A program made the position numbers and the translations under genes. Of a stretch of DNA of 64,000 bases, positions 32,169 through 56,522 are shown piece after piece. The notes under the pieces were generated by a model. It was not told the origin of the DNA. It searched no databases and saw nothing but the letters and a program-made list of their open reading frames with translations. Each line of letters opens with the position of its first letter. Position 1 is the first letter of the stretch. The DNA is from Clostridia bacterium (GTDB lineage: Bacteria; Bacillota; Clostridia; Christensenellales; Borkfalkiaceae): the NCBI GenBank assembly GCA_017504655.1, contig JAFVQT010000036.1:33062-97061 (forward strand), read 5' to 3'.

Positions 32169-32243
32169 TAATTTACAAAAAGCGGACTTGCGCATTCGCG
32201 TAAGTCCTTGACTGTACAAAAATATTGAGTTTTATCAGAGAGG

Positions 32244-37699: not shown

Positions 37700-38965
37700 G
37701 TGATTATGATGAAAATATGTCAAAACTGCAAGGCTAAGCTAAATAGCGACGACTTGTTTTGCAGTTCGTGCGGAGCAAAATACAACCCTGACTCCGCGTC
37801 AAATGAAAAAGACTCGCTGTTTTTAAAGTATTCAAGCTATTTAAATAACGATAGCTTGTTTAACGTAGCGTGGGCAAAGGAGCAGGGAATTGTTAAAAGC
37901 GACGTTGCCGACGAAGCTGAGCAAATATATAAGTTTTTAGCCATGAAGGGTCATTTAAACAGTATGTTCAGATACGCGATGATGTTATTAAATCGAGGAC
38001 CGAGTGGCTTAACCGAAGCAAGGACTTGGCTGAAGATAGCTTCTGAGCACGGGCACGTAGAGAGCATTAACTATTTAAAAGCAGAGCTTGGCGAGGATGT
38101 TAAGGGGAGTTGTGTCAGTCACGTGTTACAGTCAGCTCCTACCGTTTCTCCGACTGTACCGTCGGTTTCTCCTGCTGAGCCTGCCGTTTCTCCTGCACAG
38201 CCTGCTCAAAGCGTAAGAAGCGGTGCAGTGCTTTCGGGTGAGGAGGTCTATTCAAAGCTACAGCGTTCAGCAGTTGAAATACACGCCTATACGGCAAACC
38301 TAAAGGCTCGCTCATCTGGTTTTTTGGTTTCCTCAACGGGATTCGTGGTAACTAACGCCCATGCTGTTTTAGACGATGACGGAGAGGTTTACCAAAACGT
38401 ACAAGTGTACTACGGCGGTAAGTATTATCCTGCAAGGGTAGTAGCGGTAGGCAGTCCTGCAGACGGCAAAAACGACAGTGTAGACTTGGCTCTTTTAATT
38501 GCAGCGGGCTTGACGGATTGCAGTGCGGTTGACCTTGGCGACGAGGAGTGCCGTAACGGTCAAAAGGTATATCTTATAGGCAATTCGCTTGGCGACGGTA
38601 TTTGTATAACTTCGGGTATTATAAGCGACGGAAAAAGAGCAATGCCGGGGCTATCGTATCCTTATATAATGACTGATGCCGCTGCAAATCACGGCAATTC
38701 GGGCGGACCTTTGGTTGATGAGAGGGGCTCGGTAATAGGTGTGCTGGTTGCAGGCGTACAAAATGCAGAGGGTATGAATTACGCAATTCCTATTGATATA
38801 GTAAAAGAATTTTTAGCGTACGTAGTGTCCTTATTAAATTTACCGCAAAGCATTTTAGGCGAGCTTTATTCTGCAAGCCCAAGTAATATGTCTATAAAGG
38901 ATAAAATCTTTAAGGGTATTCATCTTGCTATTGATGTAATTGAATTTATTCTTAGTATTTTCTAA
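37700..38965 (+). CDS. Zinc-ribbon / Sel1-repeat / trypsin-like (S1C, HtrA/DegP-type) serine protease with a C-terminal hydrophobic segment.
   Basis: The zinc ribbon is CQNCKAKLNSDDLFCSSCGAK. Sel1-like repeats follow (MKGHLNSMFRYAMMLL...KIASEHGHVESINYL) and then a PxxS linker. The protease core has catalytic His in VVTNAHAV, Asp in SVDLALL and Ser in GNSGGPLVDERGSVIGV. Confidence 0.75.
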   Translation: MIMMKICQNCKAKLNSDDLFCSSCGAKYNPDSASNEKDSLFLKYSSYLNNDSLFNVAWAKEQGIVKSDVADEAEQIYKFLAMKGHLNSMFRYAMMLLNRGPSGLTEARTWLKIASEHGHVESINYLKAELGEDVKGSCVSHVLQSAPTVSPTVPSVSPAEPAVSPAQPAQSVRSGAVLSGEEVYSKLQRSAVEIHAYTANLKARSSGFLVSSTGFVVTNAHAVLDDDGEVYQNVQVYYGGKYYPARVVAVGSPADGKNDSVDLALLIAAGLTDCSAVDLGDEECRNGQKVYLIGNSLGDGICITSGIISDGKRAMPGLSYPYIMTDAAANHGNSGGPLVDERGSVIGVLVAGVQNAEGMNYAIPIDIVKEFLAYVVSLLNLPQSILGELYSASPSNMSIKDKIFKGIHLAIDVIEFILSIF

Positions 38966-38988: not shown

Positions 38989-39888
38989 ATGAAAGAAAAA
39001 ATCAGAAATCTTACAGTCGCTCCTCGCGAGGATTACGTTATTTGGACGGAAGACCTGACCAATATCGTTCGCGAAACAACGTTGACGGTATCTGCCGGAT
39101 GTGTTGCACTTTACTTAGTAAACGGCGTAATTAAGAGTATAAATATTCCCGGCCGTGCGCTTATTAAATCAAAAGCTGAAGACAAATCCAACAGCAAGCT
39201 CGAGCTCATATGCGTTAATACGGATAAAACCTTTGAAATTTGCTGTGGAGTAGGTAATATTCCTTTCAAGGATTCTGAAATCAACTGCGAAACCGTAGTT
39301 GGTGCACACGGTGAGTGTAAAATCAGAATTTCTCAGCCATGGCCTTTATACACGACCTTCGGCCACGCTCCTATCAGTGCTGAGGAAATTGATTCTTACG
39401 TTAAGCTTAAGCTCAACGAGATTATGACAACCCGTCTTGCAGAGGTTTTACAGCATTACGATTACAGCAATATTATGACTCAGCAGTCAGCTATTGCAGC
39501 AGACCTTGAAAAAAGATTTTCTCAACGCCTTAACGATATAGGTCTTGAGGTTACGAGCTTTGCGCTTGCCGGCATAATGTTCAACGCCGAGTATCAGGAA
39601 AAGCGCAGAGAGTATTTTGAAATGCAAAATTGCAGACAGGCAGAAAAGCTTGAGCGCAGAGCAAGAGAGCGCGAGCAAAGAGCGGAAATTGACAACGTTA
39701 TTGCAATAGCAAACGCAACAAAAAATCTCAACACGTCGTCTAACGTAACGCCTCCTCAGCCTGCAGCGCCCGTAACCCCACCACCTCAACCGCAGTCAGG
39801 CGCAAGACTGAATTTCTGCCCAAGATGCGGTACAAAGGTAGATCCTTCAGCAATTCATTGCTCGGGATGCGGTAAAAAACTTATATAA
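38989..39888 (+). CDS. SPFH/Band-7-like protein of the YdjI type (COG4260-like) with a C-terminal zinc ribbon.
   Basis: The N-terminus EDYVIWTEDLTNIVRETTLTVSAGCVALYLVNGVI resembles B. subtilis YdjI (IEWTDDSKDTLVYRFP...GAQLTVRESQVAVFVNEGEI). The C-terminus is FCPRCGTKVDPSAIHCSGCGKK, and GGAG serves as the RBS. Confidence 0.55.
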   Translation: MKEKIRNLTVAPREDYVIWTEDLTNIVRETTLTVSAGCVALYLVNGVIKSINIPGRALIKSKAEDKSNSKLELICVNTDKTFEICCGVGNIPFKDSEINCETVVGAHGECKIRISQPWPLYTTFGHAPISAEEIDSYVKLKLNEIMTTRLAEVLQHYDYSNIMTQQSAIAADLEKRFSQRLNDIGLEVTSFALAGIMFNAEYQEKRREYFEMQNCRQAEKLERRAREREQRAEIDNVIAIANATKNLNTSSNVTPPQPAAPVTPPPQPQSGARLNFCPRCGTKVDPSAIHCSGCGKKLI

Positions 39889-39905: not shown

Positions 39906-40244
39906 ATGGCATTATTCGGTCTTTTTGGAAATAAAGAAAAGAAAAATTTACAGGTAAACGAAGCTAACAAGGCAAAGATATTAAATATCTTAACTCAAAC
40001 TCAAATGGCATGTAAGGATGCTAACGCAATTGCAGTATTAAGAAAAATCGCTTCTCAAATTCAAGCTCAGGGTGAGTCCTCAAGCGAAGAGCTTATGACC
40101 ATCGACGGTGAAATTCTTAAGATTTTGACCGATTCTCACGCGTTTATTCTCAAGCAACAGTATCCGACTGCAATCAGTAAGTTAAACAAGGCGTTTAACC
40201 TTGCAGTTGACAGAAATCAATACTGCATGCTCGGCGGAAGATAG
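39906..40244 (+). CDS. Small protein (112 aa). It is probably the N-terminal part of one gene that continues in-frame past a TAG into 40287..41414.
   Basis: It has a strong RBS (AAAGGAG). It ends at TAG 40242-44, and the next ORF is in the same frame 42 nt downstream with no RBS of its own. Confidence 0.5.
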   Translation: MALFGLFGNKEKKNLQVNEANKAKILNILTQTQMACKDANAIAVLRKIASQIQAQGESSSEELMTIDGEILKILTDSHAFILKQQYPTAISKLNKAFNLAVDRNQYCMLGGR

Positions 40245-41432: not shown

Positions 41433-42986
41433 ATGAATTTACAGTATATTTTACTTGCCGCTAAAACTATGTCCGAAAAGGCTGAAAAAGAGAATGCTTG
41501 CGGTCTTTCAAGCGCAAAGCAATCGTTTAGTATGGCGGCGAAGAGATATAGACAGGCTGCAGAGTTGGATCCAAATAACAGTAAGGAATATTTAAAGCTT
41601 GCGGAGGAATACGAGCGCAAAGCAAGCGGAGCAATGGCAAACAATGCTTCAATAAGCAGTATTCAAGGCGCGACAATGTCTTCTCGTACGCCAAACGCAC
41701 AAAATGCGCAAAATACACCGAGCGCGCAAGCACCCAAAAAGGAATCTGCAAAGCAAGAGCAGGCAATCAGCGCAAGCGTCACTCAAGAGGACGTTTCAAT
41801 TGAAGAGGCTATGGGTAGGCTTAACGCTCTTACAGGTCTTAAGGGAGTTAAAGAAAAGGTTCAGTCCTGGGTGTCGCAAATCAGGGTGTTTAAGCGCAGA
41901 GAGGAGCTGGGGCTTCCAGTTCCCGACGATTTTTCTTATCACCTCGTGTTTACGGGTAATCCGGGTACGGGTAAAACTACTGTTGCAAGATTTATGGCTC
42001 AGATATACAAGGGCTTGGGTATTTTGGAGCAAGGACAGCTTGTAGAAACGTCAAGTAGTGATTTGATTGCAGGCTACGTCGGTCAAACAGCTCAAAAAAC
42101 AAGGGCGGTAGTCGAGTCTGCAATCGGCGGTGTTCTCTTTATTGACGAGGCGTATACCTTAAACGGTAATGAAAAGGGTAACGAGTTTGGTAAGCAGGCA
42201 ATAGACGAGCTACTTAAGTGTATGGAAGACCACCGAAGAGAATTGGTTGTTATCGTTGCGGGCTACACCGACTTGATGGCTCAATTTATTGACACAAACC
42301 CCGGTCTTCAGTCGCGTTTTAATACGACGATAGAATTCGACGATTATACGGGCGACGAGCTTATGAAGATTTTTGACGGTCTTTGCAAGAAGAACAGATA
42401 CGAGCTTACGACTAAAGCAAGACTTATACTTAGCGAGCATTTCAATAAGCTCTACGAAAAGAGGGATAAAAACTTCGGTAACGGACGTACTGTAAGAAAC
42501 ACCTTCCAACAAATAGTTTTAAACCAGGCGCAGAGGCTTGACAGAATTTTCCAAACATCGCCAACCGCTCAGGTTTCAGACGAAATGATGGTTACTATTA
42601 CAGAAGACGATTTGTCAGGCGTTGTAGGTGAGGACAGCATTTCAAAAACTATCGAATATGAGCGCACTAAGGCTGAGATTAACGACGGTGTAATTTACGG
42701 TTACCTTTCTCAAAAGAATCTTCCCTCAGCCGCGACAGCTCTTTGCTCGCGTTTAGAAAGTCTTTTAAGATACGTTTACAATTTCTCGGGTGACCTTTGT
42801 ACTATGATTAACGAATTAAGGTCCTCCTCACACGCGAAGGCTAAGCTTTTGACAAGAGAGCATTACGATTGTATGTACCGCGTAAGGGTGTACAGAAACG
42901 CTCACGTTCATGCAGGTGAATGTGACGTTCAGCTTACTCCGCAGGACGTAATGGATTGCTTAAAGATAATCTTAATGCTCGAATAA
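41433..42986 (+). CDS. AAA+ ATPase of the SpoVK/CbxX type with an N-terminal MIT-like domain and a C-terminal extension.
   Basis: The N-terminus is AKQSFSMAAKRYRQAAELDPNNSKEYLKLAEEYERKA. The AAA module has FTGNPGTGKTTVARFMAQIY, GGVLFIDEAYTL and LVVIVAGYTDLMAQFIDTNPGLQSRF (CbxX/SpoVK-like). An AGGAG RBS is present. Confidence 0.75.
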   Translation: MNLQYILLAAKTMSEKAEKENACGLSSAKQSFSMAAKRYRQAAELDPNNSKEYLKLAEEYERKASGAMANNASISSIQGATMSSRTPNAQNAQNTPSAQAPKKESAKQEQAISASVTQEDVSIEEAMGRLNALTGLKGVKEKVQSWVSQIRVFKRREELGLPVPDDFSYHLVFTGNPGTGKTTVARFMAQIYKGLGILEQGQLVETSSSDLIAGYVGQTAQKTRAVVESAIGGVLFIDEAYTLNGNEKGNEFGKQAIDELLKCMEDHRRELVVIVAGYTDLMAQFIDTNPGLQSRFNTTIEFDDYTGDELMKIFDGLCKKNRYELTTKARLILSEHFNKLYEKRDKNFGNGRTVRNTFQQIVLNQAQRLDRIFQTSPTAQVSDEMMVTITEDDLSGVVGEDSISKTIEYERTKAEINDGVIYGYLSQKNLPSAATALCSRLESLLRYVYNFSGDLCTMINELRSSSHAKAKLLTREHYDCMYRVRVYRNAHVHAGECDVQLTPQDVMDCLKIILMLE

Positions 42987-43083
42987 TCAACTTATAGGCT
43001 GGTTTTTTTAGAACAATATTAAAATAAAGCAGACAGGTGACCCTTTTAAGGCTCACCTTTGCTTATGTTAAGGAAAAGTTGAA

Positions 43084-44067
43084 ATGGAAAAAGAAATAGA
43101 AGGCAGTCTGTTAAACGGTAAGATGCAAAAGGCGTACCGGGTGGGTGCTTTGCTCTATATTCCCGCTGTTTACGATTTAAGCGTTGTAGATAAAATAGCA
43201 CGCGGAGATTTTAAGTCTGTTGCATTTTGCCTTGAGGATTCTATTGCAGACGATGCGGTGGAGCAGGCAGAAATAAACCTCAAAAGAATTTTAACTGCAA
43301 TAAAAGAAAGAAAAATTGCCAATTTGCCAATGATATTTATCCGTCCGCGCAGTCCTAAGCATTTGGAGCGCGTGCACAATGCTATTATGGGGCAAATTGA
43401 TATTGTATCCGGCTACGTTTTGCCAAAATTTGATATGTCTAATGCAAACGAATATAAGGCTATTTTTCTCGAGATAAACAAGCAGTCGCAAACGCCTTTA
43501 TATATGATGCCTATTTTGGAAAGCCGTTTGATTGCTCAAAAAAGCACGAGGACTGAAGAGCTTTATCAAATCAAAGCAGTATTAGATTCCATAAGCGAAT
43601 ACGTGCTGAACGTAAGAGTTGGAGGAAACGATTTCTGCAATTTGTTCGGAATTCGCAGAAGGGTAAATCAAACTGTATACGACGCAGGTGTCGTTCGTGA
43701 TATTTTGATTGATATTCTAAACGTTTTTTCTTTAGATTACGTTGTGTCGGGTCCCGTTTGGGAATATTATGGCAAGGATGAAAACGGCGATTGGGCAAAG
43801 GGCTTAAAAAGAGAGCTTGAGTTGGATTTGTTAAACGGCTTTGTCGGTAAAACGTCTATCCATCCCGAGCAAATCCCTATAATTTACAAAAGCTTAAGAG
43901 TGGATAAAAACGATTATCAGGACGCTCTCTCTATTTTAGGTTGGCATTCTTCAAGGTTGGGTGTCTTTTCAAGCGCAAATCACTCCCGTATGAATGAGGT
44001 TAAGTGTCACCGCAAATGGGCAGAGAGGATATTTATACTCGCAAGCATTTACGGAATTAAGGAGTAA
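43084..44067 (+). CDS. HpcH/HpaI aldolase / citrate-lyase beta-subunit-like TIM-barrel C-C lyase (Ter-associated biosynthetic gene).
   Basis: AYRVGALLYIPAVYDLSVVDKIARGDFKSVAFCLEDSIADDAV resembles the HpcH/CitE N-terminal strand-loop pattern. The call is strengthened by its operon context with ATP-grasp, PRTase and HAD genes. Confidence 0.6.
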   Translation: MEKEIEGSLLNGKMQKAYRVGALLYIPAVYDLSVVDKIARGDFKSVAFCLEDSIADDAVEQAEINLKRILTAIKERKIANLPMIFIRPRSPKHLERVHNAIMGQIDIVSGYVLPKFDMSNANEYKAIFLEINKQSQTPLYMMPILESRLIAQKSTRTEELYQIKAVLDSISEYVLNVRVGGNDFCNLFGIRRRVNQTVYDAGVVRDILIDILNVFSLDYVVSGPVWEYYGKDENGDWAKGLKRELELDLLNGFVGKTSIHPEQIPIIYKSLRVDKNDYQDALSILGWHSSRLGVFSSANHSRMNEVKCHRKWAERIFILASIYGIKE

Positions 44068-44071
44068 ACGT

Positions 44072-45079
44072 ATGAGAGTTTGGTTTAACCATTGGTTCAG
44101 CACTGTTTTTCATTTAATAAACCTTATAAAACAAGGCTCTCCAAACAAGTTTACGGTTATAGGCTCTAACGAGAATGAAACTGTCGTTTATAAAAATGCT
44201 TGCGACGAGTGGTATACAGAGCCTCGCGGGCTTACCGATGAAGAGTACGTTGATTTTTGCTTGGTGTTTTGCAAGGAGCATAAAATCGACGTTTTTGCTC
44301 CGAGAAAAAAGCTTTTGGCAATATCTAAAAGCTATGACAGGTTTAAGGAGCTTGGAGTAATATTGATGCTTGACGACCAATATCCGTTACTTGAAATGCT
44401 TGAGGATAAAGCAAGGACGTACGAATATTTTGCTCAAATCGTACCCGAGTGTGTTCCAAGCTTTGGCATTGCAAGAAGCTACGGAGAGTTTTTAAGCTGT
44501 TACGAAGAGCTGTCTAAGACAGCAAGCAGAGTATGTTATAAATTGGTTGAGGATGAAGGTGCAAGAAGCTTTCGCGTAGTAGACAACAGAATAGAGGGCA
44601 TTAACGCGCTCTTGGAAAAGCCGGGTATGAAGGTAACTTTAGATACCGCAAAGAAAATTCTTTCGCAATACGATTTTAAGGTTCCGCTTTTGCTTATGCC
44701 GTATCTGTCGGGCGTTGAGGTCAGCGTTGACTGTCTGCAAACGCCAGGCGAAAATATAATTATCCCCCGCTATAAGACCAATAAACGCTATTCTGAGATA
44801 ATTTTCGATGAAAAAATGATGAGTGTTTGCAATAAAATACTTGACAGTATAGCTCTTAAAAGCCCTTTAAATATTCAGTTTAAATTTGAAGGCGATAAAT
44901 TTTATTTGTTAGAAATAAATCCGAGAATGTCAGGAGGATTACAGCTTTCGTGTGAGGCAACGGGCATAAATTTGCCTGACGTTGCCATTAACAAAGCGAT
45001 AGGCGAAAATAAGACTTGGAAATACCCAAGCTTTAAATCACAAAGAGTAGTACACATTGAAACGCCTATACGTCTATAA
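44072..45079 (+). CDS. ATP-grasp family ligase.
   Basis: ATP-grasp hallmarks are present: the ...KLVEDEGARSFRVVD... central domain and LLEINPRMSGG near the C-terminus. The start at 44072 follows an AAGGAG RBS; the track ORF 43994 overlaps the upstream gene. Confidence 0.7.
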   Translation: MRVWFNHWFSTVFHLINLIKQGSPNKFTVIGSNENETVVYKNACDEWYTEPRGLTDEEYVDFCLVFCKEHKIDVFAPRKKLLAISKSYDRFKELGVILMLDDQYPLLEMLEDKARTYEYFAQIVPECVPSFGIARSYGEFLSCYEELSKTASRVCYKLVEDEGARSFRVVDNRIEGINALLEKPGMKVTLDTAKKILSQYDFKVPLLLMPYLSGVEVSVDCLQTPGENIIIPRYKTNKRYSEIIFDEKMMSVCNKILDSIALKSPLNIQFKFEGDKFYLLEINPRMSGGLQLSCEATGINLPDVAINKAIGENKTWKYPSFKSQRVVHIETPIRL

Positions 45080-45081
45080 TT

Positions 45082-46215
45082 ATGAGTGAATATAACCAGA
45101 CTAAGATTTTAAAAATTGCAAAGAGATATGCAAATTCAAAGCGACCTTATTTGCTTGTCAATCCAATTCAGGCAAAGCACGTGCCTACAAGACCCGGTGA
45201 AGCAATTTGCATGATGCGGGATTTAGGTGAGCAGGTCAGTAAAAAGTATCCTGATACCGGCGTTGTAATAGCGTTTGCCGAAACCGCGACTGCAATAGGT
45301 GCGATTGTTGCCTCGTGTTTTAAGGATTGCACCTATGTGCAAACTACGAGAGAGGCTTATCCGTCAGACTGCGACTGCATGTGCTTTCAAGAGGAGCACA
45401 GTCACGCGGTAGAGCAAAAACTGTGTAAAACGCATTTGTTAAAGGCGTTTGAGTCTACCGAAACTGTAATTTTGGTAGACGATGAGATTTCTACGGGTAA
45501 AACACTTATCAATATTGTAAAGGAAATAAAGGAAGCGTATCCTTGTACTGAGGACAAGCAGTTTGTTTCCGTGTCGATAATTAACCGTTTAAGCGATGAA
45601 AACGTAGATTTGCTTTTAAGAAACGGTATAAAATGCGAGAGCTTGCTTAAAATAGTAAATCAAAATTACGACAAGGTCGTTGAGAATATTCAAATAGATG
45701 CCCCATTAGAGTTGACCGACGGGGCAGAATTTTCTGTAGAAAAAATCAGTATGCACGGTGTTGGCAACCCAAGAGTAGGTCTTGCCATAAACGGTTACGT
45801 GACAAATTGTCAACGCTTAGCCACCGACGTGTTCAAAAGACTTAGAAACAACCTTAAATCAAGTAAAAAAGTACTTGTTTTGGGTACTGAAGAGTTTATG
45901 TATCCGTCATTGGTCTTAGCTCAAGAAATTGAAAACAGGGTGAAAGGATGCTCTGCGTTTGTTCATGCGACAACAAGAAGTCCTATCGGCGTGTGTAAAA
46001 TCGAGGGCTACCCCATTCAAAACGGCTACAGGCTAAGTAGCTTTTACGATAATGAGAGGCAGACCTTTTTGTATAATTTAGATTACTACGACGAGGTAAT
46101 TATTCTTACAGACGGCGACGTAGACAGTACAGGTGGGCTTAAAGACGTTATAAGCGCACTGTCCTTGTACGGCTGTAAAAACTTCTTTGCAATAAGGAGC
46201 GTAGATTGTGTTTAG
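45082..46215 (+). CDS. Phosphoribosyltransferase (PRTase)-domain protein of the Ter-associated type.
   Basis: The PRPP-binding motif ETVILVDDEISTGKTL is present. The gene is translationally coupled (TAA..ATG) to the ATP-grasp gene. Confidence 0.75.
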   Translation: MSEYNQTKILKIAKRYANSKRPYLLVNPIQAKHVPTRPGEAICMMRDLGEQVSKKYPDTGVVIAFAETATAIGAIVASCFKDCTYVQTTREAYPSDCDCMCFQEEHSHAVEQKLCKTHLLKAFESTETVILVDDEISTGKTLINIVKEIKEAYPCTEDKQFVSVSIINRLSDENVDLLLRNGIKCESLLKIVNQNYDKVVENIQIDAPLELTDGAEFSVEKISMHGVGNPRVGLAINGYVTNCQRLATDVFKRLRNNLKSSKKVLVLGTEEFMYPSLVLAQEIENRVKGCSAFVHATTRSPIGVCKIEGYPIQNGYRLSSFYDNERQTFLYNLDYYDEVIILTDGDVDSTGGLKDVISALSLYGCKNFFAIRSVDCV

Positions 46216-47257
46216 TTCGTATTTGCCACAAGACGTAACCGTTTTATTAAAGGACATAACGGGAGCTGTTACGCCGTTATCAACTAAAGAAAGAGAGGAG
46301 AGAATACAAAAGGGGACGCCTTATTCCGAGATGCTCCCCATAGAATACGTCCCATCAAAGCAGTATTTAGACACCTTTTATACTGCGCTTGAAAGATACG
46401 CGCCTATAACGGCAAGGGCTGTTGCAAGCGTTGCGCAAAGAATATGGAAAGATAAAAAGGGTGAGGTAACCTTAGTTTCTCTTGCGAGGGCAGGAACGCC
46501 TATAGGAATACTTATAAAGCGTTATTTGTTGAATAAATACGGCGTAGAAGTACCGCATTATACCATTTCGATTATCAGAGGAGTCGGTATTGATAAAAAT
46601 GCAATGCAATATATTTTGAATCGCCACAGCGCTGAATCTGTTCAGTTTGTAGACGGCTGGACGGGAAAGGGAGCAATTCAGAATCAGCTTACCGAGGCAA
46701 TGAGGGGTTATAATGGTGTGTCGGACGGGCTTGCAGTTTTGTCCGACCCTGCCGGAATTTCCGAAAAATGCGGTACGTACGAAGATTTTCTGATTGCAAG
46801 CTCTTGCTTGAATTCTACCGTTTCGGGCCTGCTCAGCCGTACTTTTTATAGGAACGACATAATCAGTGGGCAGGATTTCCACGGCGCAGTATTTTACAGT
46901 GAGCTGAAAAACGATGATCTTACTTACTGTTTTATAGAAAAAGTGCAAAAGCATTTTACCTATAACGAGGATGTTTTTGATGAAGCCCCACCAAAAAACG
47001 TTGGAATTAAAGAGGCTGAGCGTATTCGTGATGAATTTAAGCTTTCAAGTATAAATTTGGTAAAGCCGAGTATTGGCGAGGCAACGAGAGTGCTTTTAAG
47101 ACGCTTACCCTGGAAGATTTTGGTTCATAGTCTGACTGATAACGAGCATTTAGGACATCTTTACAGGCTTGCCGAAGAAAAGGGGGTAGAGGTTGTGGAA
47201 TATCCGCTTAAAAACTATAAAGCATGCGGTTTAATAAAGGATTTGGCAGATACCTGA
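46208..47257 (+). CDS. StiP-like protein (named 'cysteine protease StiP family' in databases; accompanies PRTase in Ter-linked operons).
   Basis: It has a GTG start overlapping the PRTase stop by 8 nt. The assignment rests on size (349 aa) and conserved position between the PRTase and HAD genes. I did not verify a sequence signature. Confidence 0.4.
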   Translation: MFSSYLPQDVTVLLKDITGAVTPLSTKEREERIQKGTPYSEMLPIEYVPSKQYLDTFYTALERYAPITARAVASVAQRIWKDKKGEVTLVSLARAGTPIGILIKRYLLNKYGVEVPHYTISIIRGVGIDKNAMQYILNRHSAESVQFVDGWTGKGAIQNQLTEAMRGYNGVSDGLAVLSDPAGISEKCGTYEDFLIASSCLNSTVSGLLSRTFYRNDIISGQDFHGAVFYSELKNDDLTYCFIEKVQKHFTYNEDVFDEAPPKNVGIKEAERIRDEFKLSSINLVKPSIGEATRVLLRRLPWKILVHSLTDNEHLGHLYRLAEEKGVEVVEYPLKNYKACGLIKDLADT

Positions 47258-47258
47258 T

Positions 47259-48026
47259 ATGAAGAGAATTTTGTTTGCGTGCGACCTTGATAATACCTTG
47301 ATTTATTCGTCGGGTAAAAGGGTTGACGGTGATATTTGTATAGAAAAAATTATGGAAAAGGAGCAGGGCTATATTTCTTTAAAAACCGTAGAGTATTTAA
47401 AGGAGATTAATAAAAAAGCCTTGTTCGTGCCTGTTACAACCAGGTCGATTGAGCAATATTTACGCATAAATTGGCCGGAAGGATGCGAGCCAAAGTATGC
47501 TATAACCACTAACGGAGGAATTTTGTTAGAGGACAAAAAAGAAGCCGAGGAGTGGAAAAGCCTCTCGTCAGAGGTTGTCAAGCCATATTTAGAAGAGTAC
47601 GATAGGCTTTTAAAGGATATGCAAGAGAGCGGACTGTTTATAAGGTGTAGAATGGTAGACGGGCTGTATTTGTTTGCATACTGTGCAGATTTTACAGACG
47701 GAAAAGAGTGTGAAAAAGCATATAGGGCAAAAACTAAATTAAGAGTTGTTTTATCGGGGCGCAAGCTTTACGTTTTTCCCGAAGAATTTCAAAAGGGCAT
47801 TGCAGTAGAAAGACTTGCAAAAATGCTGAACGCGGATACGGTCTATTCTGCGGGCGACAGCATTATCGATCTTTCAATGCTTTTATCCTCCGACCAAGCG
47901 TTTATACCAAACGGGTGGCTAATGAAGGAATGTAAAGATCTAAAGGCAAACGTTTGTCCAACTGGCGTCCGTTTTTCTGAATTCACAGTTGAAAAAATCA
48001 ACGAGTTAATAGATGAAAATATTTAA
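47259..48026 (+). CDS. HAD-superfamily phosphatase.
   Basis: The N-terminal DxDxT motif is ACDLDNTLIY, and GDSIIDLSML is the motif IV region. It is translationally coupled to the upstream gene. Confidence 0.8.
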   Translation: MKRILFACDLDNTLIYSSGKRVDGDICIEKIMEKEQGYISLKTVEYLKEINKKALFVPVTTRSIEQYLRINWPEGCEPKYAITTNGGILLEDKKEAEEWKSLSSEVVKPYLEEYDRLLKDMQESGLFIRCRMVDGLYLFAYCADFTDGKECEKAYRAKTKLRVVLSGRKLYVFPEEFQKGIAVERLAKMLNADTVYSAGDSIIDLSMLLSSDQAFIPNGWLMKECKDLKANVCPTGVRFSEFTVEKINELIDENI

Positions 48027-48031
48027 TTATA

Positions 48032-48074
48032 AAGCGCGCTATAAGTCGATAATCGGCTTATAGCGCGCTTTTTT
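48032..48074 (+). terminator. Rho-independent terminator, copy 2 of the twin hairpin (compare 27331..27376).
   Basis: The 14-bp stem aagcgcgctataag / cttatagcgcgctt encloses the loop tcgataatcgg and is followed by TTTTT. Confidence 0.75.
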
Positions 48075-48086
48075 AAGCGTTTTTAG

Positions 48087-48620
48087 TCATAGTCCAAATT
48101 GTCCGCTTATCGGGTCTTTGAATATGTTTAAGCAAGGTGTGGCAAACGTAAACAGTATAAACGCAAACGCAATTATGCAAAATGCGATAATACTCGGGGT
48201 GTTAAGGTTGAATTTTTTGCTATTTACGTTTTTTAATAGCTTGCCCTCATAAAGATAGCAAAGCCCTGCAGAAATAAAAAATATTGCAACGTTAAACCAA
48301 TCGGGCGATTTGCCTATAACCCCGTTATACGTGTAGAAGATTATTGGGATTAAAAGCAAACCGACAGATGTTCCCTTTAATTTTATAAGCCAAAAATTAT
48401 CTGAATCCTTAAAGCAAAAGCTTTGAAATACGGCGTATAAAAATGCGGGAAAAAAGAACAGCTTCATATGCTCCCACGTGGATTCGTTTACTCCTGAAAA
48501 GGGCGCGGCTAAATATGAGCCTCCCGTCCACTCATATAGAAAGTGAAGCAGTGTCCCGCCGATTGCAGTTACGGTATAACCGAGTAACTGCCAGATTAGT
48601 ATTGAGCGTTTAATAATCAT
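48087..48620 (-). CDS. Small integral membrane protein (about 5 TM) of unknown function.
   Basis: It is hydrophobic throughout (LLGYTVTAIGGTLLHFLY..., LLLIPIIFYTYNGVIG..., IIAFCIIAFAFILFTF). It is the only convincing minus-strand gene before MscL. Confidence 0.6.
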   Translation of the reverse strand: MIIKRSILIWQLLGYTVTAIGGTLLHFLYEWTGGSYLAAPFSGVNESTWEHMKLFFFPAFLYAVFQSFCFKDSDNFWLIKLKGTSVGLLLIPIIFYTYNGVIGKSPDWFNVAIFFISAGLCYLYEGKLLKNVNSKKFNLNTPSIIAFCIIAFAFILFTFATPCLNIFKDPISGQFGL

Positions 48621-48796: not shown

Positions 48797-50953
48797 ATGT
48801 TAAAAGGAAGATTTACTTTGCCGGCAGATAATTCGCTTGGCGAAAAGACTAAGGAGATTGCTAAGTTATGGGGCAGTGATGCAGTAAGAGATTGCGACGG
48901 AACAGAGCTTCCCGAAAATCCAAAGCAATACGGAAAGGTTTACAATACTTATTTTATCGTTCGCGGTGATAACGATTGGGCAAGGCTTCATCCTGAGGAG
49001 GCTCAAAGAATTTTCCTTCTTACAGAAAGGCATTTAGCAGTTTGCGATAAGGTTGAAATTGAGATAATGAAAACCTTTTTGAAGGATGAGTTTGACCCTG
49101 ACTGCAGCTATTTGGACAGATGGGAGGTTTATGACAGAACGACCGGTATTTTGCACTCTGACTGGAGCTACGATCAAAAAACGGGAATAGTAACTGTTTT
49201 AAATGCAAAGAAATTTCATGAATATACCGTGTCGTTTTTAGCAAGAATTACTTGGCATCCCGTACAAATATATAATTATTTGACAAACGAATGGACTTGT
49301 GAAAAGCAGCTTACATACGACCCGGCATTCCCTCATACCAAAGAGTATATAAAAAGGCACATGGAGGAGTGGTGTTTGCAAAATCCCGACACTGACGTCG
49401 TCAGATTTACTACCTTTTTATATCAATTTACCTTAATTTTTAACCAATTAGGTAAAGAAAAGCAGGTTGAGTGGTTTGGCTATGCACAGACCGCAAATCC
49501 TATTCATATTGATAATTTCTATAAAAAGACGGGTATTAAGCTCACCGCTGAGGATTTTGTGGACGAGGGTCATTACAACAATATATTCAAAGCTCCTACC
49601 CAAAAATTCAAGATGTATATGGAGTTTATCGAAGAATTTGTTTGCGAAACTGTAGCGGAATTAGTTGAAATTTGTCATAAGCACGGCAAAGAGGCTATGA
49701 TGTTTTTAGGTGATGACTGGATAGGCTCCGAGCCATACGGCGAGCATTTTAAAAAGATGAATTTGGATGCCGTAGTAGGCTCTGTAGGCGGTGGCGTTAC
49801 AGTAAGAATGCTCTCCGAGATTCCTCACGTAAAATATCACGAGGGCAGATATTTGCCTTATTTCTTCCCCGATACCTTTTTCGACGGAAACGAGGATAAC
49901 GCCGTAGCAGAGCTCAATAGAAACTGGCTTACCGCAAGAAGAGCAAATATGAGAAAGCCGTTAGACCGTATGGGCTTTGGCGGATACCTTTCACTTGCTG
50001 CAAAGTTCCCCAAATTTATCGAAAGGGTAGCACAGATTGCAGATGAGTTTAGGACTGTTTATGATGCGATTGATAATAAAAAGCCATATTGCAGATTAAA
50101 GGTTGCTATTTTAAATGCTTGGGGTAAAAAGAGAAGCTGGATGAGTCACATGGTTGCTCACGAGCTTTGGTATCAGTCGATATATTCTTATCAAGGCATA
50201 TTAGAGGCTATTTCAGGGCTTCCCGTCGACGTTGAGTTTTTATCGTTTGACGAGGTTTTAGGCGGTGTGCCGGAGGGTATCGACGTAATAATCAACGCGG
50301 GCGATGCTTATACCTCGTTTAGCGGAGGAAAGGCTTGGCTCGATGAGAGATTGCAAGCCTCTATCAGAGAATTTGTTTATAACGGCGGTGGATTTATCGG
50401 TGTTGGCGAGCCAACTGCTTGCTCGGCAAACGGAAGATATTTCCAGCTTGCAGACGTGTTGGGCGTGGACAAAGAAATAGGCTACACTCTTTCTAACGAT
50501 AAGTACAATATTCAAAAGATAGCTCATGATCTTACCGACGGAATGACTGCATTTGACTACGGCGAGGATAAGAAGAATATTTACGCGTTAGACGGCACGA
50601 GTGTTTTAGACATAGCTTTTTCTGACAGATTTAAGCGCAACGTAAACGTAGGCGAGGTTAAAATGGCTGTAAACAGCTTTGGCAAGGGCAAGAGCTTTTA
50701 TATAACCGGTATCCCTTATTCCTTTGAAAATTCAAGGCTTTTATATAAGGCTATGTGTTACGTTAGCGGAAAGGATTTACACGTATGCTACTCGTCAAAT
50801 GTAAATACCGAATGTAATTATTATCCCACAAGCAGTAAATATGCGGTTGTAAACAATGCGGATAGCGAGCAGGTTACTGATTTTTATGACGTAAACGGTA
50901 ACAAACAAACTATTACCTTAAAGCCTATGGAAATTAAATGGATTGAGGCTTAA
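48797..50953 (+). CDS. GH112 1,3-beta-galactosyl-N-acetylhexosamine phosphorylase (galacto-N-biose / lacto-N-biose phosphorylase).
   Basis: It aligns along its full length with Bifidobacterium LnpA from memory: MLKGRFTLPADNSLGEKTKEIAKLWGSDAVRDCDGTELPE, DVVRFTTFLYQFTLIFNQ, AMMFLGDDWIGSEPYGEHF, EGRYLPYFFPDTFFDGNEDNAVAELNRNW, MGFGGYLSLAAKFPKFIE, GVGEPTAC and GRYFQLADVLGVDKE. Its 718 aa length fits. Confidence 0.9.
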   Translation: MLKGRFTLPADNSLGEKTKEIAKLWGSDAVRDCDGTELPENPKQYGKVYNTYFIVRGDNDWARLHPEEAQRIFLLTERHLAVCDKVEIEIMKTFLKDEFDPDCSYLDRWEVYDRTTGILHSDWSYDQKTGIVTVLNAKKFHEYTVSFLARITWHPVQIYNYLTNEWTCEKQLTYDPAFPHTKEYIKRHMEEWCLQNPDTDVVRFTTFLYQFTLIFNQLGKEKQVEWFGYAQTANPIHIDNFYKKTGIKLTAEDFVDEGHYNNIFKAPTQKFKMYMEFIEEFVCETVAELVEICHKHGKEAMMFLGDDWIGSEPYGEHFKKMNLDAVVGSVGGGVTVRMLSEIPHVKYHEGRYLPYFFPDTFFDGNEDNAVAELNRNWLTARRANMRKPLDRMGFGGYLSLAAKFPKFIERVAQIADEFRTVYDAIDNKKPYCRLKVAILNAWGKKRSWMSHMVAHELWYQSIYSYQGILEAISGLPVDVEFLSFDEVLGGVPEGIDVIINAGDAYTSFSGGKAWLDERLQASIREFVYNGGGFIGVGEPTACSANGRYFQLADVLGVDKEIGYTLSNDKYNIQKIAHDLTDGMTAFDYGEDKKNIYALDGTSVLDIAFSDRFKRNVNVGEVKMAVNSFGKGKSFYITGIPYSFENSRLLYKAMCYVSGKDLHVCYSSNVNTECNYYPTSSKYAVVNNADSEQVTDFYDVNGNKQTITLKPMEIKWIEA

Positions 50954-50985
50954 ACCTTTAATAATCGACTTATAGATAGGTTTTT
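50952..50985 (+). terminator. Terminator-like hairpin after the GH112 gene carrying the ataatcgacttatag motif.
   Basis: The stem aaacct...aggttt is followed by TTTTT. The loop contains the same 15-mer as the loop and right arm of the 27331 hairpin. Confidence 0.45.
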
Positions 50986-51142
50986 CTAAAACGAAAGCTA
51001 CAAATTGGTGAGGGTGGACAGGCAATCGCTTGCCTATCCAAGGAGTAGTTTTCGTTTTTTTTTTGTAAAATTTTAAGTTTTAAATTGAAAATATAGGTTT
51101 ATATGTGGTACAATCATTATATGATATTTAAGGGGGCTTTTT

Positions 51143-52543
51143 ATGGAAAAGGTTAAAAAGCAGTACGGGCTTTGGACGGGTATCGCAATGGTTATCGGTA
51201 TCGTTATAGGCTCGGGCGTTTTCTTAAAGGCAGGCGGTGTGCTTTCGCTTGCAGGTGGAGATTTAAAGCTTGCATTACTTGCATGGCTTGTCGGTGGCGT
51301 TATAATGATTTGCTCAGGCTTTTGCTTTGCGGTTTTCGCAACGAGAGTTACTAAGTATAACGGTGTTATCGACTATGTAGAGGTTTCTACAAACAGAAGG
51401 GTTGGTTACGGCTTGGCGTGGACGATGACGACCTTTTATTATCCTACTGTAGCATCTATCGTGGCTCTTTTTGCAGGAAGTTATTTCTTTAAGCTTTTAG
51501 GCATGAATATCGAGCTTGCAGATTGGCGGAATTTTATATTCGCATTTGTAATTTTACTGCTTTTCGTAGTACTTAATTACGTGTCGCCTATTATATCCTC
51601 AAAATTTCAAATTTCGGCAACGGTAATTAAGCTTATGCCTATAGGCGTTATTGCTGTTGCAGGCTTGTTTGCATCGCTTATAGTTGACGGTAACGTCGGT
51701 ATAATAAATGCGTTTTCTATAAAAGCAAGAGGCTACGAAGCAAATTTTGGCGAGGCCGTCAAAAAAACTGCCTTTGCATACGAGGGGTGGGTGTGCGCGA
51801 CTGCTATAAATGCCGAGCTTAAGGATTCTAAAAAGAATTTGCCTAAGGCTCTCGTTATCGGCACGGTAGCAATTCTCGGTTTTTATCTTATCTATTATAT
51901 TTCGCTCTCCGCATTTTTGGGCAATGCCGGTACTATAATTCAAGACGATTACGCTCCTATCGCCGTGTTTGAGAAAATTATGGGTAAGGTTGGCGGTGTT
52001 ATCTTTACAGTATTTATTCTTGTATCATGCTTGGGTACGGTAAACGGTGTTACCGTTGCATGCTGCAGAGGTATGTATACTATGTCTTGCAGAGGTCAGG
52101 GTATCATGCCCGAAAAGTTCTCTAAGCTTGGCAAAAATCAAAGTGTAAGCCTTTTATCGTGTGTTTACGGCTTTGGTTGTATGATGATAATGCTTGGTGT
52201 ATGGTATCTCGCATTCAGCGGAAATAAGTTCTTTGGGCATCTTACAAGCATGGATGAAATTATTTGTGCTATAATCTATGCGGTTTATATCACAATGTAC
52301 GTTTATATTATGAAGAACTTTAAAGACTGCGGTGTATTCTCAAGATTTGTTATGCCGATAATGGCTATAATAGGTTCGCTCTTCTTTGTATTTTGCGGTA
52401 GCGGGTTATATCAGCTTATCTTCTTAAGCTCGTGGGATAGCTTAAAGGCATTTGGCGTGTTTATGATTATATTTGCGGTGATGACAATCCCTTGTATATT
52501 CTTCTATCACGGCGGTGGAAAGGATTTAAAAGAGAGCGATTAA
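51143..52543 (+). CDS. APC-superfamily amino-acid permease.
   Basis: It has 12 predicted TM helices. The N-terminus is WTGIAMVIGIVIGSGVFLKAGGVL, and GSGVF is the APC consensus. Confidence 0.8.
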   Translation: MEKVKKQYGLWTGIAMVIGIVIGSGVFLKAGGVLSLAGGDLKLALLAWLVGGVIMICSGFCFAVFATRVTKYNGVIDYVEVSTNRRVGYGLAWTMTTFYYPTVASIVALFAGSYFFKLLGMNIELADWRNFIFAFVILLLFVVLNYVSPIISSKFQISATVIKLMPIGVIAVAGLFASLIVDGNVGIINAFSIKARGYEANFGEAVKKTAFAYEGWVCATAINAELKDSKKNLPKALVIGTVAILGFYLIYYISLSAFLGNAGTIIQDDYAPIAVFEKIMGKVGGVIFTVFILVSCLGTVNGVTVACCRGMYTMSCRGQGIMPEKFSKLGKNQSVSLLSCVYGFGCMMIMLGVWYLAFSGNKFFGHLTSMDEIICAIIYAVYITMYVYIMKNFKDCGVFSRFVMPIMAIIGSLFFVFCGSGLYQLIFLSSWDSLKAFGVFMIIFAVMTIPCIFFYHGGGKDLKESD

Positions 52544-52580
52544 TTATTTTCAATACAATTAAGCCCCTTGCCGTAGGTTG

Positions 52581-52619
52581 TACGAGCAAGGGGCTTTTTG
52601 TGTAAAATTTCAAATAATC
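52581..52619 (+). terminator. Rho-independent terminator after the permease gene.
   Basis: The stem aagccccttgc / gcaaggggctt is followed by TTTTT. Confidence 0.7.
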
Positions 52620-52869
52620 GCCTTATACGCGCACGGGCTTTTGGCTTACTAAATGCCCTTTTGTAATATGTTAGGATAAAGTTAATAGCTAAGCGAACTT
52701 TTTAAGACGGAAAATGTCCGTTTATGATACAAAAAACATTAAAATTGTTGTTGAAAAAATTTTTTAATAGTTATATAATTATTATAGAAAACCTTTGGTT
52801 TTCCAATTAAGATTTTCCAAAGGAGAAAATATGATTGTATACAACTTTGGCGTTTTAAAGAGGTAGATT

Positions 52870-54180
52870 ATGAAAAAATTAACTTGTGTTGTTCTTGGAT
52901 ATGGAAACAGAGGAGAGCGTTATAGCGAATATGCTACGGTGCAAAGCGATGAACTAGAGGTGGTCGGCGTTATTGACCCAAATCCTGTAAGAAAAGATGC
53001 TGCAAAGAGTCAATTTTCTTTAAGCGAGGACATGCTCTTTAATAACTTAGAAGAGTTTTTTAATAAAGACGTACAATGCGATTTCGTTATAAATTCAACT
53101 ATGGATGAGTTGCATTATGAAACGACCATGGCTCTTTTAGATAAAGGTTATAATATTCTTTTAGAAAAGCCCGTTACGTCAAACGCAAAGGAGCTTTTAG
53201 ATATTAAAAATAAGGCTGAAGAAAAGGGACTTAAGGTTGTTGTTTGCCACGTTTTGAGATACACGCCTTTCTATTCTTCAATAAAAAACATTATAGACAG
53301 TGGAAAAATAGGAAAGGTGGTAAGCTTACAGCTTAACGAGCACGTTTGGTACGGCCATTTTGTAAACGCATACGTAAGGGGTAAGTGGAATAACGAGGAC
53401 GCTTGCGGAAGTGGACTTTTGCTTGCAAAATGCTGTCACGATACCGACCTTATTTGTTGGCTTAACAATATTACAGAGCCCGTTGCCGTATCTTCCTTTG
53501 GTAGTAAGGCGTTTTTCACTGAAGAAAACGCACCGAAAGGCTCTGCAAAGCGTTGCCACGAGTGTACTGTAGAAAACTGTATGTTTAACGCTAAAAAGTT
53601 TGAAATAGAAAAGGATTTTTGCCCCATGTACACTTGGGGAAAGATTCAAAAACCTTTGGAAGATATTACGTACGAGGAAAAAGTTGAGTTTTTAAAGACA
53701 AGCAGCTATGGCGAATGCGTCTTTAAAACCGATATGAATATAGTAGACCGTCAATGCGTTTCGGTTAATTTTAAAAACGGCTCTATTGCTACGCTTAATA
53801 TGATCGGTGGAACAAGCGCTGCGGGTAGACATATCCACGTAATATGCGAGTTCGGTGAAATAGTAGGTTACGTTGAGCAAAATAAAGTCATAGTAAGAAT
53901 TTTTGATAAAGAAAATATCGGTGTAAACGAGGAAACAGTTGACTTTTCAGCTAAAGTTGACCTTACAAAAGAGGATAACTCTATGGGTGGTCACTACGGT
54001 GGTGATTACTATATCATGCGCGATTTGGTCAGATTTTTGAACGGAGAGCCAACATCCTCGTCAACTACTGTAATTAGCGATTCTATAAGCGGACACATGG
54101 TAGTTTACTGCGCTGAAAAAGCCAGAAAAACCTCAACTGTCGTATTCGTTGACGAGTTTGAAAAGGAAGTTATTGCTTAA
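52870..54180 (+). CDS. Gfo/Idh/MocA-family NAD(P)-dependent oxidoreductase.
   Basis: It has the N-terminal Rossmann motif VVLGYGNRGERY and the family hallmark EKP motif (NILLEKPV). Its 436 aa length fits. Confidence 0.8.
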   Translation: MKKLTCVVLGYGNRGERYSEYATVQSDELEVVGVIDPNPVRKDAAKSQFSLSEDMLFNNLEEFFNKDVQCDFVINSTMDELHYETTMALLDKGYNILLEKPVTSNAKELLDIKNKAEEKGLKVVVCHVLRYTPFYSSIKNIIDSGKIGKVVSLQLNEHVWYGHFVNAYVRGKWNNEDACGSGLLLAKCCHDTDLICWLNNITEPVAVSSFGSKAFFTEENAPKGSAKRCHECTVENCMFNAKKFEIEKDFCPMYTWGKIQKPLEDITYEEKVEFLKTSSYGECVFKTDMNIVDRQCVSVNFKNGSIATLNMIGGTSAAGRHIHVICEFGEIVGYVEQNKVIVRIFDKENIGVNEETVDFSAKVDLTKEDNSMGGHYGGDYYIMRDLVRFLNGEPTSSSTTVISDSISGHMVVYCAEKARKTSTVVFVDEFEKEVIA

Positions 54181-54283
54181 AGAAAGTAAATATTACTTAA
54201 GTAAAACAAATTTAGCAATAGTAATATGGGAGTTTAAAATTGGTGCAAAAATCTATAGAATATCTGAAAGGGGCTATTAAATA

Positions 54284-56407: not shown

Positions 56408-56522
56408 AGCAAGGCATATTAAAGCTTTGCTTTAAATTTTTGATAAATTTAAAAAAAATATTGAAATGTCTAGTAAATTTTGTTATATTTGTAATAAGTT
56501 TTATCATAAAGAGAGGGCAAAT

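Follow-up and report, generated by a model that had tools for sequence, protein, structure and literature searches.

The stretch of DNA analysed here (the window) comprises 64,000 nucleotides of contig JAFVQT010000036.1 from the Clostridia bacterium assembly GCA_017504655.1 (positions 33,062 to 97,061 of the forward strand), and we focused on five enzyme genes at positions 43084-48026 of the window. These genes almost certainly belong to the Ter-associated biosynthetic module, of which they form the complete five-enzyme version, and they are an ordinary member of a widespread kind that was predicted in 2012. In this uncultured gut bacterium, they are also the 3' end of a Ter-type stress/defence locus (27554-48074), which runs from a Ca2+ pump through three TerD genes, a TIR-TerD gene, and a seven-gene cassette to the five enzymes. 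The enzymes are ordinary; the setting is less so, with a TIR-TerD gene and an ESCRT-III-like/AAA cassette in one operon-like block, and the locus as a whole is a variant Ter system, with a cassette that is not seen in species-representative Ter loci. The best overall explanation, which we consider probable but far from secure, is that the five genes are a Ter nucleoside-pathway operon whose product is read by TerD and is coupled to the TIR/cassette output.

Few gene sets for resistance to stress, phages, and colicins are as widespread in bacteria as the Ter system, which is carried by thousands of clinical plasmids. Anantharaman, Iyer, and Aravind reportedly linked a biosynthetic module of these enzyme families to ter loci in 2012. 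Two later papers summarise that prediction (PMC11994780, PMC7824862).

The initial annotation described 43084-48026 as a five-gene operon with overlapping or abutting genes, and the coordinates of the open reading frames (ORFs) bear this out. All five ORFs are on the plus strand and are tightly packed. The stop codon of the lyase gene (TAA, 44065-44067) is followed by a 4-nt gap and the start of the ATP-grasp gene (ATG, 44072), which has AAGGAG upstream. A 2-nt gap precedes the start of the phosphoribosyltransferase (PRTase) gene (ATG, 45082). The StiP gene overlaps the PRTase gene by 8 nt and starts at a GTG (46208), again with AAGGAG upstream, and a 1-nt gap separates it from the HAD gene (ATG, 47259). 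The gene coordinates given earlier needed just one correction, which is that the longest ATP-grasp ORF opens at 43994. We favour 44072 as the start because of the ribosome-binding site (AAGGAG) and because the gene calls in relatives are 335-336 aa long. The motifs that had been read from the translations are present and intact as well: the PRTase carries the phosphoribosyl pyrophosphate (PRPP)-binding motif VILVDDEISTGKTL, the HAD protein has DLDNTL at residues 9-14 (and a second motif, GDSIIDLS), and the ATP-grasp protein contains the C-terminal motif LLEINPRMSGG. An intrinsic terminator closes the transcription unit after the HAD gene. The pattern is no product of chance, and the same gene order recurs in relatives at 52-97% identity.

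The assignment to the Ter module comes from the Pfam families of all five proteins, whose scores far exceed the curated cut-offs (Table 1; the cut-off for Hydrolase_3, the lowest-scoring family, is 20.9 bits). These include the PRTase_2/TRSP, StiP, and HpcH-like lyase (C-C_Bond_Lyase) proteins, for which profile searches had been proposed. The HAD protein also matches the NCBIfam Cof-subfamily and HAD-SF-IIB models, below their cut-offs. The ATP-grasp protein has a weak match (1e-8) to the CPS-like ATP-grasp structure 2pn1, which includes the EINPRxxGG motif. For the lyase, the PRTase, and StiP, sequence searches of structures gave no solved relative. Across 31 homologues of the PRTase, there is no variation at D134, E135, T138, G139, K140, or T141 or in the HxTTRSP motif, and all 120 of the 120 best homologues share the PRTase_2+TRSP architecture.

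To see how the module is distributed, we used a pattern scan that covered one genome per species, and at least 590 stretches were confirmed as relatives. The best of these, among the matches listed, is only 47% identical, so the representatives do not include the lineage of the window itself. We counted neighbouring genes in the 41 loci from species-representative genomes that have full 10-kb flanks. Within 10 kb of the PRTase, StiP was found in 37 of the 41 loci and TerD in 30; the lyase, the HAD protein, and a homologue of the PMCA-type pump were each found in 26, and the ATP-grasp protein in 13. All five enzymes were present in seven loci, six of them with TerD. Homologues of the PRTase are also encoded in 2,559 plasmid records (26-29% identity over at least 90% of the length), mostly from Klebsiella, Escherichia, Enterobacter, and Salmonella. 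Phage records with a homologue numbered four, so we dropped the idea of a phage origin.

The window itself contains four TerD domains (30279-34264), on the same strand as the operon and 9-13 kb upstream of it. Together with the 30 loci just mentioned, this speaks against an operon that lacks TerD neighbours, which is an outcome the initial annotation had allowed for. From the Ca2+ pump to the HAD gene (27554-48026), there are 20 ORFs on one strand across 20.5 kb. The longest gap inside this block is 97 nt, if the 155 nt at a frameshift are set aside. Three of the TerD domains are separate paralogues that share an acidic GDxxTG...DDE motif, which we take to be the Ca2+ site of TerD structures. 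The true start of paralogue 2 is probably the internal Met before MINLSKGQ. The largest true gap lies between the cassette and the lyase gene and holds a hairpin that the terminator scan did not call; it may be a weak internal terminator or an attenuator ahead of the ribosome-binding site of the lyase gene. The promoter/terminator scan gave counts at background level. Across the whole window, Rfam at the gathering threshold matched no RNA family, so no riboswitch precedes the operon, and the tRNA scan found no tRNA.

Table 1. Features of the Ter-type locus, and cassettes in other Clostridia that stand apart from Ter genes. Positions refer to the window unless another locus is named.
Feature	Position	Strand	Evidence or remark
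PMCA-type calcium-translocating P-type ATPase	27554-30253	+	NCBIfam TIGR01517 628 bits (cut-off 507); Pfam Cation_ATPase_N/C, E1-E2_ATPase
TerD paralogue 1, acidic motif GDNLTGEGDGDDE	30279-30851	+	Pfam TerD 9e-66
TerD paralogue 2, acidic motif GDDRTGGKSDTGDDE	30880-31530	+	Pfam TerD 1e-64, match from residue 23
TerD paralogue 3, acidic motif GDDRTGGNSEDGDDE	31581-32168	+	Pfam TerD 7e-69
Fusion gene: zinc ribbon, helical region, TIR, zinc ribbon, coiled coil, TerD	32244-34264	+	Split by 1-nt frameshift
Snf7/ESCRT-III-like small helical protein, 193 aa (first cassette gene)	34307-34888	+	
Snf7-like N-terminal domain fused to classical-clade AAA ATPase, 551 aa	34903-36558	+	Pfam AAA 5e-33
AAA ATPase with helical N-terminal region, 376 aa	36569-37699	+	Pfam AAA 1e-28; PADLOC IetA 6e-40 over AAA core
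Zinc ribbon and HtrA/DegP-like trypsin-fold serine protease, no PDZ	37700-38965	+	Pfam Trypsin_2 6e-25, Zn_ribbon_3
SPFH/Band-7 protein with C-terminal zinc ribbon	38989-39888	+	Pfam Band_7 2e-8, Zn_ribbon_3 4e-6
Coiled-coil protein of no known family, about 502 aa	39906-41414	+	Single ORF of 499-507 aa in relatives
SpoVK/CbbX/EccA-type AAA ATPase with AAA_lid_6 and weak C-terminal DUF4145 (last cassette gene)	41433-42986	+	Pfam
Intergenic gap between cassette and lyase gene, 97 nt	42987-43083	+	Hairpin AGGTGACC...GGCTCACCT, then TTGCTT
HpcH/CitE-like TIM-barrel C-C bond lyase	43084-44067	+	Pfam C-C_Bond_Lyase PF15617, 331 bits, 1.3e-98, full-length
ATP-grasp carboxylate-amine ligase	44072-45079	+	Pfam ATPgrasp_Ter PF15632, 124 bits, 6e-36
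Type I PRTase with TRSP domain	45082-46215	+	PRTase_2 PF15609 147 bits, TRSP PF12500 78 bits
StiP + PELOTA_1 protein	46208-47257	+	PF11202 337 bits (6e-101), PF15608 101 bits (4e-29)
HAD-IIB (Cof/SPP-like) phosphatase	47259-48026	+	Pfam Hydrolase_3 44 bits, 3e-11; DxDxT and GDxxxD motifs
Intrinsic terminator between convergent HAD and DUF6512 genes	48031-48074		GC-rich palindrome of about 15-20 bp, then T6
Stand-alone cassette, locus L087	10001-19060		
Stand-alone cassette, locus L088	5737-12682		
Stand-alone cassette, locus L089	6287-14752		
Stand-alone cassette, locus L091	10001-18582		
Stand-alone cassette, locus L092	10001-18662		

The fourth TerD domain appears in the window as an ORF of its own (33629-34264), downstream of an ORF with a TIR domain (32244-33473). 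In a tblastn search with the 637-aa protein from a relative locus (L090), the TIR part was matched in frame 1 at 78% identity, and frame 3 was matched at 67% from about position 33533, which is upstream of the nominal start of the fourth TerD gene. Frame 1 ends with ...RIAEEQKSR* and frame 3 reads on as ...AEKQVEEHKKQAEEQKKKAEEQ...; if one A is restored in the A-run at 33462-33465, the result is a regular heptad linker. Because the L090 match spans both frames and one added A restores the linker, we consider the two ORFs to be one gene with a 1-nt frameshift. Most simply, one A was lost from the A-run. The frameshift falls in a repetitive AEEQK linker, in the region 33430-33540. The frameshift could be real decay, phase variation at the homopolymer, or an assembly error. 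The NCBI record of the TIR protein from the same metagenome-assembled genome (MAG) is likewise truncated, at 407 aa. At least 11 protein clusters with 54-78% identity are intact fusions of a zinc ribbon, TIR_2, and TerD (606-683 aa). So, the TIR domain that the initial annotation had seen is real, but it is the N-terminal part of a frameshifted TIR-TerD fusion rather than a separate gene. Nor is it immediately next to the operon, as had been claimed: what adjoins the operon is the gene for the SpoVK-like AAA ATPase, and 9.6 kb lie between the end of the TIR ORF and the operon downstream.

More distant relatives of the TIR protein (32-46% identity) have LRR, DUF6273, or Sel1 domains at the position where TerD stands, and because of this, the comparison suggests that TerD occupies the sensor position of the TIR protein. 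The TIR-fused TerD domain does not have the acidic motif, unlike TerD paralogues 1-3. In the TIR domain, E262 lies within a CDALQEL motif and is invariant across 24 family members. From the WCxxEL motif, we take E262 to be the catalytic Glu position of TIR NADases.

The first gene of the cassette encodes a 193-aa helical protein. Its family is small, with 72 clusters by word-indexed search and 208 representatives by exhaustive profile search, and its structural model shows a helical hairpin (42 and 58 residues) followed by two shorter helices. This protein had no direct profile match in Pfam or the PDB. The family profile found nothing among PDB sequences even at E values up to 10, and direct Pfam scans of the helical proteins and N-terminal regions (E up to 10) gave no Snf7, PspA, or MIT match. 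Among 91 distant members of the family, Snf7 is the Pfam family that is matched most often (15 members, best E 1e-6), and in the long distant members the family domain stands N-terminal to an AAA ATPase, a RuvB-like ATPase (with NERD or TnsA-type nuclease), or an FtsK ATPase. Because the same family profile matches residues 6-184 of the 551-aa protein (E 9e-41), we describe that protein as an AAA ATPase with a Snf7-like domain fused to it.

The ATPases of the cassette stay below the cut-offs of the NCBIfam models with which they were compared. The 551-aa protein scores 163 bits with the NCBIfam model for CDC48, 158 with CdvC, and 156 with PAN, all far below the cut-offs, and its Vps4_C score (20.0 bits) is just under the cut-off of 21.3. 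The 376-aa protein scores 132 bits with IteA and 128 with CdvC (cut-offs 510 and 650). Since the CdvC, Cdc48, PAN, FtsH, and IteA models score alike and all fall short, both proteins are, as judged by these profiles, classical-clade AAA ATPases and not specifically Vps4-like. The last ATPase of the cassette likewise stays below the cut-offs of spore_V_K (265 bits), EccA (249 bits), and CbbX (227 bits). The ESCRT-like label given earlier has genuine support in its ESCRT-III part, where transitive profile matches point to a Snf7-like protein, and a Vps4-type ATPase is not established. We see in the cassette a candidate for an ESCRT-III-like system of bacteria that has AAA ATPases of its own.

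As for the other cassette genes, the protease scores 106 bits with NCBIfam degP_htrA (below the cut-off), and the SPFH protein is conserved in all of the cassette loci. The coiled-coil gene is interrupted by a nonsense codon (AAG to TAG at 40242-40244), which leaves ORFs of 112 and 375 aa; this TAG is the sole difference from a near-identical contig (L003) across 181 nt. The lesions in the coiled-coil and TIR-TerD genes may be real decay or MAG assembly errors. A second trypsin gene is present in L090 (8944-9957), between the TIR-TerD and Snf7-like genes. More generally, trypsin-fold proteases occur in 23 of 86 Ter loci. Clostridial Ter loci that lack the cassette also hold such proteases, and these are sometimes fused to YceG_bac inside the biosynthetic run (L005, 12224-13672).

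Why might the cassette be coupled to the Ter module? Within the Ter locus, the cassette takes up the interval that separates the TerD genes from the enzymes, and relatives at 52-82% identity retain this nested order (the lower figure is for the PRTase). The short gaps inside the block and the one terminator after its last gene point the same way. The TIR-TerD fusion is found in exactly the clade that has the Ter-linked cassette. Furthermore, two cassette-free Ter loci, from MAGs of Ruminococcus and Acutalibacteraceae, have single ORFs for a SpoVK/CbbX-like AAA ATPase that ends in a TerD domain (L037, 6949-8973, 674 aa; L044, 7837-9897, 686 aa). These genes are directly upstream of the Ter biosynthetic genes, and their AAA parts are 48-52% identical to the window's SpoVK-like ATPase. 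Thus, TerD is fused to two different output enzymes, TIR and a SpoVK-like AAA ATPase. This is the best evidence in our analysis, and it argues that TerD domains connect the Ter signal to effector or output modules. It is plausible that the metabolite acts as a signal to the TIR/ESCRT-like module, as the initial annotation suggested. The broader idea that a Ter metabolite is a signal sensed by TerB or TerD is already in the literature (PMC7824862, PMC7159879).

From the enzyme families, we can sketch an order of chemical steps, although the chance that this order is correct falls a little short of even. The PRTase_2-TRSP protein would join a base-like acceptor to PRPP to give a ribonucleotide. 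The ATP-grasp ligase would then attach an amide-linked group, and the HpcH/CitE-like lyase would make or trim a carbon skeleton, either that of the added group or that of the acceptor. The StiP-PELOTA protein would perform a second ribose-phosphate step, and the HAD-IIB phosphatase would strip a phosphate to yield a nucleoside-like product. The product would be kept in the cell and be read by TerD domains together with Ca2+, whose level would be set by the PMCA-type pump and which would be bound by TerD paralogues 1-3. The Ter signal would pass through the motif-less TerD domain to the fused TIR domain and lead to cleavage of NAD+, and the membrane-associated cassette (Snf7-like, AAA, protease, and SPFH proteins) would remodel or repair membranes under envelope or phage stress. 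This link from the signal through TerD to the TIR protein and the cassette is drawn from gene context, and on balance we consider it doubtful, if quite possible. A bolder version is decidedly speculative and, in our view, unlikely: the Ter metabolite might be a second messenger that is built by PRPP chemistry instead of by a nucleotide cyclase, with TerD proteins as its receptors, and TerD loaded with its ligand or with Ca2+ might switch on the TIR NADase and recruit an ESCRT-III-like polymer that is remodelled by the AAA ATPases, the protease, and the SPFH scaffold, so that the whole would be a membrane-repair or abortive-infection machine. If this second-messenger reading were true, a bacterial ESCRT-III-plus-ATPase machine would answer to a small-molecule signal. 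All five genes are intact, compact, and suited to heterologous expression, and because TerD is fused to TIR (assayable as an NADase) or to an AAA ATPase, an effect of the metabolite or of Ca2+ on TerD could be measured as enzyme activity.

The TIR gene and the cassette could instead be an independent defence or membrane-stress system that was inserted once, as in a defence island, while the five enzymes serve the core Ter functions (TerD and Ca2+) alone. Several of our results point this way and count against the coupling that we favour. The cassette stands free, beside unrelated genes and with no Ter gene, in five loci from other Clostridia (L087, L088, L089, L091, and L092), and in L088 it adjoins a gene for a giant TIR-LRR protein, so that it has a TIR neighbour of its own. 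It is found in none of 80 species-representative Ter loci. Most genes of the Ter-linked cassettes are 71-82% identical to those of the window, versus 21-70% for the stand-alone cassettes; because the Ter-linked cassettes form one clade by identity, their nesting in the Ter locus appears to be a single insertion event in one small clade and not a recurrent association. The 97-nt gap with its hairpin, between the cassette and the lyase gene, also fits two separate systems. What this explanation does not account for easily is that the TIR protein of this clade acquired a TerD domain, which is hard to explain without some interaction with Ter, that a homologue of the last cassette ATPase is fused to TerD in Ter loci without the cassette, and that the cassette lies inside the Ter locus rather than beside it and is kept there down to 52% identity. 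We consider an independent system, the main rival explanation, to be doubtful but quite possible. The coupled reading faces other difficulties too. TerD is more than 10 kb away or absent in 11 of the 41 full-length loci. Given its two disabling lesions, the frameshift in the TIR-TerD gene and the nonsense codon in the cassette, the output arm may be inactive in this genome. StiP was reportedly predicted to be a second PRTase in the 2012 work, and the StiP family is named as a cysteine protease; the proposed StiP step finds no support in our comparisons, as an hhalign comparison of a StiP alignment (81 sequences) with a PRTase_2 alignment (87 sequences) gave a probability of 0.7%, and a permissive Pfam scan gave one faint Pribosyltran match (E 0.039, in one of six members, residues 65-99). 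Finally, more than 10 years after the prediction, we found no report in the searchable literature of the module's product, of an enzyme activity, or of a TerD ligand.

Other explanations concern the product itself. TerD domains that are fused to intracellular enzymes suit an internal ligand better than a compound that is secreted or directed to the envelope. Such a compound could be a nucleoside antibiotic, a metal-binding molecule, or a modifier of the cell wall, and the Ter proteins would provide self-protection or transport. In favour of this idea, pathways to nucleoside antibiotics typically use PRTase, ATP-grasp, HAD, and aldolase-type enzymes, and Ter loci have been linked to toxic-ion resistance (PMC11994780). 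But the block has no exporter, regulator, or resistance gene of the antibiotic-cluster type (its sole transporter is the Ca2+ pump), and the module is present on thousands of enterobacterial plasmids. We judge a secreted compound to be quite improbable. A housekeeping operon for purine or pyrimidine salvage, the outcome in which the PRTase would cluster with salvage enzymes, is effectively refuted. The PRPP loop is generic, and the model of the PRTase has a type I PRTase fold whose nearest solved folds are APRT, XPRT, and OPRT. The identity to these solved proteins is just 10-19%, however, and the NCBIfam APRT, HPRT, and OPRT models score only 15-30 bits against cut-offs of 115-200. Also, the TRSP fusion and the four partner families are specific to Ter loci.

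We compared the locus with known systems, beginning with the proteobacterial ter islands (IncHI2 plasmids such as pECJS-59-244, R478-type). These encode the same five protein families beside TerD-family genes, with a HAD-size protein for the HAD member. In pECJS-59-244, the genes for the ATP-grasp protein, the PRTase, a 257-aa protein, StiP, and the HpcH-type lyase are divergent from terZ-terE and upstream of the terW, vWA, TerD, PP2C, and kinase genes. The gene order differs: it is ATP-grasp, PRTase, hypothetical protein, StiP, and lyase in the islands versus lyase, ATP-grasp, PRTase, StiP, and HAD in the window. Instead of the TerW, vWA (TerY), and PP2C/kinase proteins of the islands, the window encodes a Ca2+ pump, a TIR-TerD protein, and the Snf7-like cassette. 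TerC and TerB, which are features of the classical terZABCDE, were not found in a scan of ORFs of 110 aa or more, a set that takes in the entire locus and almost all of the window; the same holds for TelA and YceG, which are present in clostridial and Bacillus Ter clusters (for example, L005, L006, and B. altitudinis, PMC11994780). The latter clusters share with the window the Ca2+ P-type ATPase, three to four TerD paralogues, and the PRTase-StiP-HAD core, all on one strand. They have three to five biosynthetic genes, with the lyase and the ATP-grasp gene present or not. The interval between TerD and the enzymes is filled by the TIR-TerD gene and the cassette in the window's small clade only.

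The cassette recalls the ESCRT-III/Vps4 systems (CdvB/CdvC) of archaea and eukaryotes in a small protein whose modelled helices suggest the ESCRT-III topology and whose distant relatives match Pfam Snf7, and in classical-clade AAA ATPases that adjoin the Snf7-like gene. Unlike those systems, it has one Snf7-like domain that is fused directly to an AAA ATPase, and its ATPases are as near to Cdc48, PAN, or FtsH as they are to CdvC/Vps4. The SPFH protein with a C-terminal zinc ribbon is as in B. subtilis ydjFGHL-type and archaeal loci (PMC11237479, PMC10936438). The protease, the 500-aa coiled-coil protein, and the SpoVK-like ATPase are extras relative to both ESCRT-III/Vps4 systems and PspA-Band-7 operons. 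According to two reviews, the pairing of ESCRT-III with an AAA ATPase is confined to archaea and eukaryotes (PMC10936438, PMC7619361). Scattered bacterial links between PspA/Snf7 and AAA+ proteins, and PspA-Band-7-zinc-ribbon operons in Firmicutes, are described in PMC11237479, whose main text has no occurrence of TerD or trypsin. In the searchable literature, we found no description of the cassette as such or of the TIR-TerD combination.

Among TIR systems, the window's TIR_2 domain resembles Thoeris in its invariant Glu and has a weak match to the ThsB profile (2e-4, PADLOC). No ThsA-type partner (SIR2, SLOG, or Macro) was found in the locus. As in other fusions of TIR to sensors, the C-terminal sensor-type domain varies within the family. 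As in IetAS, an AAA ATPase gene directly precedes a serine protease gene. IetS is a subtilase. The window's protease is trypsin/HtrA-like, the ATPase falls well short of the IteA cut-off (see above), and the pair is embedded in a seven-gene unit. We judged the PADLOC matches to IetA, ThsB, and RT-protease to be generic domain matches. PADLOC has no models that match the lyase, ATP-grasp, StiP, HAD, or TerD proteins.

The composition of the stand-alone cassettes varies. The second gene joins a Snf7-like domain to one of three kinds of ATPase: AAA, RuvB-like (with a TnsA/NERD nuclease), or FtsK-like. Two of these loci have an extra helix-turn-helix gene, and one has no protease.

Downstream of the operon, a DUF6512 gene (48087-48620, minus strand) converges on the HAD gene, and one palindromic terminator serves both; L003 conserves this DNA, although it has no gene call there. 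In three relatives, the HAD gene is followed instead by an unannotated ORF of 146-147 aa (L001, 12995-13435; L006, 12961-13404; GCA_016648615.1, 14029-14469), and two of the three encode a double-AAA + Peptidase_M41 (FtsH-like) protein of about 1,150 aa further downstream. The window has neither of these after its HAD gene. Upstream, a gene at 26715-27317, 236 nt before the Ca2+ pump, encodes a 200-aa protein with a Q/P-rich linker and a C-terminal zinc ribbon of the type seen in the TIR, protease, and SPFH proteins. It is not kept at that position in L090.

We dropped a mobile-element origin for the locus: no integrase, transposase, or tRNA was found in the window, and the flanks (2260-26615 and 48797-58880) are glycan-utilisation genes. 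The flanks encode ABC permeases, two DUF4838 proteins (775 and 1,741 aa), Listeria-Bacteroides repeat proteins, a GH38 alpha-mannosidase, a lacto-N-biose phosphorylase, and a GH2 enzyme, as well as large ORFs that have no Pfam match (574 aa at 2260, 1,026 aa at 5927, and 707 aa at 54284). Further along, 12 kb downstream of the operon and beside MscL, there is a YfbK-type vWA protein (59985-61481; vWF_A + VWA + YfbK_C). It is probably unrelated to the Ter locus, because it is of a different type from the vWA partners of proteobacterial Ter systems and housekeeping genes intervene.

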